Shown here in pieces: positions 42,665 to 42,703 of a DNA stretch of 64,000 nt. The position numbers were made by a program, and so were the translations under genes. This DNA is from Escherichia phage 212. The first letter of the stretch is position 1. Each line of letters starts with the position of its first letter. Location of the stretch: the sequence record PQ765507; one strand, given 5' to 3'. The notes below the pieces were generated by a model, which worked only from the letters and a program-made list of their open reading frames with translations, ran no database searches and was not told the DNA's origin.

Positions 42665-42703
42665 ATGTACGTGATGGGATAGTTGCAGTATAATTATCCC
42701 ATC
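42665..42703 (+). promoter_or_regulatory. early promoter cassette (-10 inside inverted repeat)
   Basis: ATGTAC - 18 bp - TATAAT; GATGGGATA ... TATCCCATC arms flank the -10; leader CAACTACTGGAG. Confidence 0.5.

Follow-up and report, generated by a model that had tools for sequence, protein, structure and literature searches.

Promoter-early stem-loops (PeSLs) have been proposed as the units by which T4-type phages shuffle their accessory genes, and the job of the stem-loop itself has stayed vague. In phi1 and RB49, each PeSL combines an AT-rich stretch, a sigma70 promoter and a stem-loop with a following Shine-Dalgarno sequence and start codon (Arbiol et al. 2010, PMC2839356). The stem-loops form five positional subclasses, of which the commonest lie between the -35 and -10 elements or overlap the -10. 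Reporter evidence supports both promoter and terminator activity, with a promoter that is strong in vivo and a PeSL211/210 stem-loop that cut downstream lacZ about as much as rrnB T1, and crossovers within PeSLs generate mini-circles (PMC2839356). Comeau et al. (2014, PMC4122927) place the stem-loops of the PST/T4 and nt-1/KVP40 PeSLs immediately ahead of the promoter. In the T4 genes e, soc, I-TevI and 49, a promoter lies inside an RNA hairpin, such that the longer RNA from upstream folds and the promoter-initiated RNA lacks the 5' strand (PMC3014915). Here, we characterize early-promoter cassettes whose -10 element lies inside a perfect inverted repeat, in a 64,000-nt stretch of Escherichia phage 212 (record PQ765507; the window), and we compare them with these systems.

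Cassettes of the window and described stem-loops

The window comes from a Gaprivervirus, an SP18/VR7-like T4-type phage, and matches P479, SP18 and the VR7 group at 90-98% identity in mosaic pieces. By the SP18 annotation, its 40-64 kb interval is a plus-strand early region running from 57A/57B through internal-protein genes, tRNAs, e.x, nudE and e to denV, further internal-protein genes, vs, regB, tk and mobD; the 57B-nrdC region is a classic hyperplastic region of T-even genomes. We defined a window cassette as a GTKTAC-like -35, a spacer of 17-18 nt and a -10, followed by a Shine-Dalgarno sequence and ATG, which gave 17 plus-strand cassettes. As comparisons, we used 36 loci, comprising the homologous region of eight Gapriverviruses and JS98 together with 27 T4-like contigs anchored on denV, and parts of the RB49 and T4 genomes were also read directly.

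We found a perfect inverted repeat of 7-11 bp around the -10 in 8 of the 17 cassettes. The sites were read directly and recovered by three independent scans, and all eight leaders listed in a preliminary description of the window were present:

41675..41738, plus strand: cassette after 57B; -35 GTGTAC (41675-80), -10 TAATAT (41699-704), ATG 41736; arms GTGTAGG (41687-41693) and CCTACAC (41708-41714); hairpin -14.8 kcal/mol, z -4.75
42665..42723, plus strand: the cassette flagged in the preliminary description; -35 ATGTAC, -10 TATAAT (42689-94), leader ACTACTGGAG, ATG 42721; arms TGATGGGATA (42672-42681) and TATCCCATCA (42695-42704); -17.7 kcal/mol, z -5.8
42999..43059, plus strand: cassette; -35 GTGTAC, -10 TATGAT (43023-28), leader AACTACTGAGGAGAATAAAATG, ATG 43057; arms GATGGGATAA (43007-43016) and TTATCCCATC (43028-43037); -14.4 kcal/mol, z -5.2
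45093..45166, plus strand: cassette; -35 TTTTAC, 17-nt spacer, -10 TATAAT (45116-21), type-2 leader CCATACTGAGTTACC, ATG 45164; arms TGGGATA (45106-45112) and TATCCCA (45122-45128); z -3.6
46431..46505, plus strand: e.6 cassette; -35 GTTTAC, -10 TAGTAT (46455-60), ATG 46503; arms GGGAACAT (46445-46452) and ATGTTCCC (46459-46466); z -2.6
51838..51897, plus strand: cassette; -35 GTGTAC, -10 CACAAT (51862-67), ATG 51895; arms GTGGGACCAT (51850-51859) and ATGGTCCCAC (51866-51875); -19.6 kcal/mol, z -4.3
54648..54706, plus strand: denV cassette; -35 ATGTAC, -10 TATAAT (54672-77), ATG 54704; arms GATAGGGT (54664-54671) and ACCCTATC (54679-54686); z -5.05
55426..55483, plus strand: cassette; -35 GTTTAC, 17-nt spacer, -10 CATAAT (55449-54), ATG 55481 of an internal-protein-like gene; arms TTGATGGGATA (55435-55445) and TATCCCATCAA (55455-55465); -18.1 kcal/mol, z -5.0

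The elements follow one order. The upstream gene ends first, its stop codon usually falling in an A-rich stretch; a sigma70 early promoter of T4 type comes next, followed by a leader, a Shine-Dalgarno sequence and an ATG. The promoters are predicted by sequence match, with a -35 resembling GTKTAC, ATGTAC or TTTTAC, a 17-18-nt spacer and a TATAAT-like -10 that is placed in the loop or shares 1-2 nt with an arm. A+T makes up 55-85% of the 20 nt upstream (at least 80% at five of the eight sites), the median gap between stop codon and arm is 13 nt, and a Shine-Dalgarno sequence and ATG follow at all eight sites. The 5' arm lies within the promoter spacer, and the 3' arm extends over the discriminator into the first few bases of the T4-type leader (ATCAACTAC...). 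The leader ends in GGAG and an A-rich run (GGAGAATAAAATG), which fits the published RegB/S1 target, a single-stranded 11-mer of GGA and A-rich sequence (PMC1702504).

The phi1/RB49 PeSLs and the window cassettes are alike in layout, with an upstream stop codon in an AT-rich stretch, a sigma70-type early promoter with a stem-loop, and a Shine-Dalgarno sequence and start on the 3' side; they are also alike in setting, between small genes in hyperplastic regions and associated with insertions and deletions (indels). The stem-loops of RB49 PeSL199/198, PeSL205/204 and PeSL193/192 bracket the -10, as in the window. PeSL199/198 (GGGGATATagcataATATCCCCATCGAAAC) resembles the window's GATGGGATAgtgcataatTATCCCATCAA, CCCATC leader included, and PeSL211/210 (GGGGATcacgtATCCCC) lacks a U tract, like the window hairpins. 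The two sets differ in genus (Gaprivervirus versus Krischvirus), in the -35 (T4-type GTKTAC versus TTGACA), in the arms (mostly of mixed sequence, GATGGGATA and others, versus Gn/Cn) and in stem position, which in RB49 is most often wholly within the spacer. The PST/T4 and nt-1/KVP40 PeSLs share with the window the consensus TTTACW-N17-TAYWAT, a location in hyperplastic regions and proximity to indels, but the PST/T4 stem-loops are placed upstream of the promoter (PMC4122927) and those of the window around the -10. Scanning T4 itself recovered -10-bracketing repeats at ipI (10 bp), at ipIII (8 bp) and near mobD.2 (14 bp).

Judged from sequence, the window cassettes have every PeSL feature that we examined, namely the predicted promoter, the stem-loop, the AT-rich layout of stop codon and Shine-Dalgarno sequence, and a hyperplastic location with indels. 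We therefore consider it very probable that they are PeSL-type composite cassettes of Gaprivervirus, and the window shows the PeSL design in another genus. The resemblance to PeSLs remarked on in the preliminary description holds, both for the similar RB49 PeSL199/198 and for the published subclasses that overlap the -10 (PMC2839356). As stem-loops in that position are already described for phi1/RB49, the window provides a further PeSL example and not a new kind of element.

Pairing, upstream context and gene junctions

The repeats are non-random, conserved as pairings, dependent on their context and located at junctions of gene shuffling. Repeats of at least 7 bp occur at 8 of 17 promoters. 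Separate shuffling of the spacer and the downstream segment produced 0.18 such promoters on average and at most 3 (5000 trials), which excludes chance as the source of the repeats. The eight predicted RNA hairpins have energies of -13.4 to -19.6 kcal/mol (z from -2.6 to -5.8), while six repeat-free promoters fold like their own shuffles (z about +0.5). The leader TATCCCATCAA has eight matches with at most one mismatch (1.8 expected). Across 312 unique cassettes from the window and relatives, arm length is bimodal, at either 2-5 bp or 7-13 bp.

Stem-bearing cassettes in the relatives form at least 22 families with unrelated arms, and the window alone contains at least five unrelated arm sequences. 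Within clusters of closely related cassettes, the arms nevertheless vary less than the free spacer and leader (0.09 compared to 0.28 variants per site, p = 1e-6). Covariation was calculated for one orthologous set, defined by its downstream gene, as a set selected for its repeats would make the calculation circular. At this e.6 promoter, the GGGAACAT/ATGTTCCC arms of Gaprivervirus correspond to GAGGACA/TGTCCTC in the JS98 group, with two pairs altered on both sides, and 95% of cells are paired, a share that drops to 37-66% on sliding the partner by 1-3 columns. Moreover, cassettes differ in the 5' arm that pairs with the type-2 leader (GATTCCATACTGAGTTAC): three such arms, TGGGATA, AGTATGGG and TCAGTATGGAGTC, complement different parts of it. 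Therefore, pairing rather than one sequence is kept, and a single sequence-specific dimeric protein is ruled out. This agrees with the earlier suggestion that the palindrome is kept while its sequence changes. Single interior mismatches are 9 G.T and 2 C.A, several of them being one event in related phages.

Individual cassettes vary in different ways. The 41675 cassette is kept in eight relatives, among which the TH44 orthologue (L008 19176-19240) has its stem re-registered from GTGTAGG/CCTACAC to GTAGGTGCA/TGCACCTAC via two adjacent 2-nt changes (TT to CA and AC to GT) on the 3' side only; it looks like a templated, quasi-palindrome-correcting mutation. At 51838, the variants in relatives are mostly G.U-compatible. 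The denV cassette has, outside its arms, an ATCTCC (54654-59) complementary to the GGAGA of the Shine-Dalgarno sequence, and this outer pairing is present in the predicted RNA fold.

We found that the repeat depends on what lies upstream. In the window, every one of the eight repeat promoters borders directly on a co-directional gene's stop codon and lacks any other hairpin, while four of the nine repeat-free promoters have a hairpin resembling a terminator, either immediately upstream or across the -35 (4063, 44574, 45619 and 61695), and two of the nine lack a co-directional upstream gene (8336 and 37615); the difference in context is significant (Fisher p = 0.009). Among 373 context-distinct cassettes, an upstream terminator accompanies 1 of 128 repeat cassettes compared to 42 of 245 repeat-free ones (p = 2e-7), and a co-directional open reading frame lies directly upstream of 126 of 128 compared to 159 of 245 (p = 4e-16). 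The presence of the repeat in read-through and insulated contexts, by leader family, is as follows:

Type 2 leaders: repeat in 18 of 25 cassettes in a read-through context and in 0 of 22 in an insulated context
Type 1 leaders: repeat in 34 of 66 cassettes in a read-through context and in 2 of 19 in an insulated context
Other leaders: repeat in 73 of 162 cassettes in a read-through context and in 1 of 79 in an insulated context

The comparison yields a simple rule: the hairpin occurs almost only where read-through from an upstream gene is possible, and hairpin and terminator can stand in for each other.

The junctions at which genes have been inserted, deleted or replaced among the relatives also lie in these conserved cassettes, which are about 60-70 bp long. 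Of 75 homology breakpoints found when the window is compared with nine relatives, 14 are in a cassette (5.7% expected, p = 8e-5), and several alignment segments overlap exactly on a cassette of which the relative has two copies, placed around an extra gene. The 42999 cassette is duplicated in this manner in TH41, TH55, TH54 and TH44, with alignment segments that overlap at 43008-43045. In TH22, TH54 and TH44, the 45093 promoter precedes an extra 98-aa gene, while the window's gene at that place has a different promoter, and the junction falls in the shared leader CCATACTGAGTTA. This junction pattern, shown by comparison of the sequences, is the modular shuffling described for PeSLs.

Possible roles of the repeat

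We placed the +1 position 7 nt after the -10, on the basis of T4 practice and of the conserved ATCAAC that T4, JS98 and this phage share. On this placement, the 3' arm ends between -2 and +6 in the 107 repeat-bearing cassettes of the window and relatives. RNA initiated at the cassette's own promoter would then lack the 5' arm, and therefore the hairpin could form only in read-through RNA from the upstream gene. The context rule is what a structure acting on RNA from upstream would be expected to produce, it is not predicted by promoter-intrinsic or purely recombinational roles, and the interchange of hairpin and terminator points to a job at the RNA level. On balance, we favor the hairpin of the read-through RNA as the structure under selection. 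Such a hairpin would take the terminator slot after the upstream cistron and leave the ribosome-binding and RegB site that comes next single-stranded, irrespective of what precedes the cassette, and the cassettes would double as recombination patches. Within this mechanism the hairpin might well be an attenuator or a 3'-end barrier for read-through RNA, although we offer attenuation or 3'-end protection as its specific role only tentatively. The location of the -10 in the loop is explained without a special role for it, because the spacer and discriminator are the only freely variable parts of so compact a promoter.

Like intrinsic terminators, the window hairpins are found directly after a gene, and in that slot the two are mutually exclusive. 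They differ from intrinsic terminators in the absence of a U tract, in stems that are not especially G+C-rich and in loops of 6-14 nt that hold the -10. We rejected an identity as intrinsic terminators, defined by a G+C-rich stem and a U tract: a terminator scan calls none of the -10 repeats, and none of the 107 cassettes has a T-rich tail after the 3' arm (at most 4 T in the 8-nt tail).

The folding of the two strands differs. The sense RNA is 2.1 kcal/mol more stable than the antisense RNA, a bias shown by 90 of the 112 cassettes with a stem and by 18 of the 22 families and absent from stem-free cassettes and shuffles, but part of this asymmetry is due to G.U pairs that lengthen the stem inward with bases of the promoter consensus. 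Within clusters, G.U-type arm variants number 11 and A.C-type variants five (three of them at the terminal pair), a split that is non-significant alone. G.T versus A.C at the pair just outside the stems was uninformative, as the bases there are dictated by the conserved leader. We consequently treat the strand asymmetry as supportive only, and its partial origin and the non-significant split count among the points that weigh against a selected read-through hairpin. Read-through contexts without a repeat are common as well (about half of such cassettes in the relatives, and 49753, 55100 and 57572 in the window), and the repeat is thus non-obligatory. Efficient intrinsic termination by hairpins without a T-rich tail is doubtful, intergenic DNA is where whole-gene indels would be expected to have their breakpoints in any case, and T4 is the basis on which we infer that the promoters are active, where their +1 lies and that read-through RNA exists. 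Finally, the compared loci are related genomes, whose counts are non-independent and whose p-values overstate independence; nevertheless, the context effect is close to all-or-none.

Other roles for the repeat account for part of these data. A DNA hairpin or cruciform could be the selected structure, serving as a recombination hot spot (for example, a target of endonuclease VII) that would drive PeSL mini-circle formation and gene shuffling, with the RNA hairpin incidental. The clustering of breakpoints in cassettes, the cassette duplications around extra genes and the multi-base re-registration of the TH44 stem, with its likeness to a templated, palindrome-correcting change, agree with such a hot spot, and Arbiol et al. 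mapped a mini-circle crossover to the loop of a stem-loop and speculated on a stem-loop-binding recombination protein (PMC2839356). However, a hot spot does not predict the absence of the repeat after a terminator or without a co-directional upstream gene, nor the sense-strand bias, and repeat-free cassettes with type-2 leaders are also at junctions, where homology alone may suffice; we regard this role as unlikely. The same TH44 change would suit a neutral by-product of templated mutation or gene conversion, or else the repeat could tune the promoter at the DNA level (melting, supercoil sensing or discriminator), as the arms sit in the spacer and discriminator, both of which affect promoter kinetics. 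Against both versions stand the absence of repeats at first-in-operon and post-terminator promoters, even with the same leader, the purifying selection on the arms and the sense-strand bias, and we consider them very improbable. The preliminary description had left the choice between a hairpin and a dimeric binding site, and only the hairpin is supported. A palindromic operator for a phage or host dimeric DNA-binding protein over the -10 of early promoters would be typical of repressor sites, and GATGGGATA/TATCCCATC is common to four window cassettes, but these shared arms are explained by a common leader and recent cassette duplication. The many unrelated arm families, the variation in arm length, loop length and register, the compensatory changes at e.6 and the dependence of the repeat on upstream RNA context make an operator hardly credible.

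Alternatively, the repeat could lie at the heart of an extended structure that, in read-through RNA, masks the ribosome-binding site further downstream, so that translation proceeds only from own-promoter RNA, as an early-promoter version of the T4 gene e, soc and I-TevI design. The window shares with e and soc a promoter inside an RNA hairpin, whose 5' strand would lie upstream of the start if the +1 is about 7 nt after the -10. The T4 cases, however, have late promoters with the Shine-Dalgarno sequence or AUG in the 3' strand, whereas the window promoters are early and the 3' arm stops short of the Shine-Dalgarno sequence, ending at least 3 nt (median 11) before it without overlap in all 107 repeat cassettes. 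The 54648, 49753 and 42665 cassettes are predicted to hide their Shine-Dalgarno sequence in read-through RNA only (modeled unpaired probability in read-through versus promoter-initiated RNA of 0.03 versus 0.47 at 54648 and of 0.02 versus 0.65 at 49753), but the predicted accessibility is the same for most window cassettes. The -10 repeats lack a Shine-Dalgarno sequence or AUG in the 3' strand, an arrangement that relatives and T4 show in another class of cassette and that 54648 and 49753 show weakly. In this second class, the start of the spacer pairs with the Shine-Dalgarno sequence over 8-12 bp (25 of 312 unique cassettes, none expected by shuffling), but no strong member is found in the Gaprivervirus loci. 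Masking is accordingly quite unlikely to be what the -10 repeat is for, and as a main function we rejected it, given no consistent difference in Shine-Dalgarno accessibility for the -10 repeat class.

The bases directly after the -35 in the second class (e.g. ATCTCCTGTAG) are complementary to the Shine-Dalgarno region (CTACAGGAGAT), and this pairing is predicted to hide the Shine-Dalgarno sequence in read-through RNA and not in promoter-initiated RNA. Its members are located as follows:

L009 16091-16150 and 18399-18458: promoters of JS98 denV and regB; also the T4 denV and regB promoters (L091)
L013, L016, L019, L029-L032, L035 and L041: further loci with the spacer/Shine-Dalgarno pairing

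It is conceivable, if doubtful, that T-even early promoters are routinely nested in structures confined to read-through RNA, either a -10 hairpin or a spacer/Shine-Dalgarno stem, as a general tagging of early mRNAs by origin. If true, termination, degradation or translation would differ between read-through and promoter-initiated copies of one gene, early genes would generally use the trick known from the late promoter of gene e, and the stem-loop of PeSLs would acquire a defined job. The context rule itself suggests compact, context-independent promoter and insulator parts for phage engineering.

Repeat-free cassettes and neighboring features

Six window cassettes without a clear -10 repeat, some with hairpins of another kind, are located as follows:

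44508..44657, plus strand: terminator hairpin (44508-44531) and T-run, then a type-2 cassette; -35 at 44574, -10 CATAAT at 44598; no -10 repeat
45615..45692, plus strand: hairpin GGGGGtatacaaGCCCCC (45615-45632) overlapping the -35 GTATAC (45619); -10 CATAAT at 45643; no -10 repeat
49753..49833, plus strand: cassette without a -10 repeat; -35 GTATAC at 49753, extended -10 TGnTACTAT with the -10 at 49777
55100..55162, plus strand: cassette with only a 5-bp repeat (TAAAA/TTTTA) around TATAAT, not above chance
57572..57631, plus strand: regB cassette with weak arms ATGAG/CTCAT; relatives have TATCCCATC here, without a 5' arm
61655..61755, plus strand: terminator (61655-61682) and T-run, then a cassette; -35 GTTTAC at 61695, -10 TACTAT at 61719, leader TATCCCATCAACTACTGAGGAG without a 5' arm

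These sites agree in most respects with the preliminary description, which had placed a promoter with short imperfect arms near 57573 and a -35 in a hairpin loop at 45609-45648, where GTATAC (45619) is indeed in the loop. It had also named leaders near 49773 and 61721 that keep a GTGT(T)AC element without an inverted repeat. The absence of a repeat around the -10 is correct, but the proposed -35 overlaps the extended -10 TGnTACTAT, and the real -35 elements are GTATAC at 49753 and GTTTAC at 61695. In the 49753 cassette, a CTCCT just before the predicted +1, helped by a hairpin at 49794-49815, is predicted to be able to pair with the Shine-Dalgarno sequence in read-through RNA.

The G5/C5 hairpins at 45615-45632 and 47103-47119 are flanked by an A-run and, on the opposite side, by a T-run or part of one. 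Both score as minus-strand terminators and, with the genes on the plus strand, may be bidirectional terminators. The regB leader (57597-57630) contains a separate 11-bp stem, ATGATTATCTC/GAGATAATCAT, that encloses the Shine-Dalgarno sequence (GGAG) and AUG; it is expected in promoter-initiated RNA too, because it lies downstream of the -10, and it may be related to regB self-control. Upstream of gene e (lysozyme, ATG 53879), a hairpin AATACCCC/GGGGTATT at 53855-53878 has the Shine-Dalgarno sequence in its 3' arm, and a late-promoter-like TAATAAATA just upstream runs into the 5' arm. This arrangement looks like the documented translational mask of T4 gene e.

The small genes at 41736, 42721, 55160 and 55481 begin MKTYQEFI or MSIKTYNEF (the gene at 42721, MKTYQEFI...), which is the conserved N-terminus of T-even internal head proteins. 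Each lies behind a cassette, and their number and identity vary among the compared relatives. Conserved repeats are reported to flank the internal-protein genes of T-even phages (Repoila et al. 1994, as cited in PMC2839356 and PMC4122927); the window is alike in that several cassettes precede internal-protein-like genes that differ between relatives.

Compared to the window near 39628, P479 has an extra gene of about 660 bp beside gene 2 (L002 16467-17126), annotated as a putative mobile endonuclease, and it also has a homing endonuclease beside gene 4; both are absent at the corresponding point of the window. The 3.35 kb at window positions 42503-45857 are 100% identical to PQ671644.1 (Escherichia phage DCP80, 140,978 bp), a record that is about 30 kb shorter than those of the other relatives and to which the rest of the query matched less well, pointing either to a very recent mosaic exchange or to an incomplete record. 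An Rfam scan of the 37-64 kb interval returned three tRNAs only, which are adjacent genes at 43718-43948 (61-72 bits) and correspond to Met, Asn and Arg tRNAs at the homologous place in the SP18 annotation.

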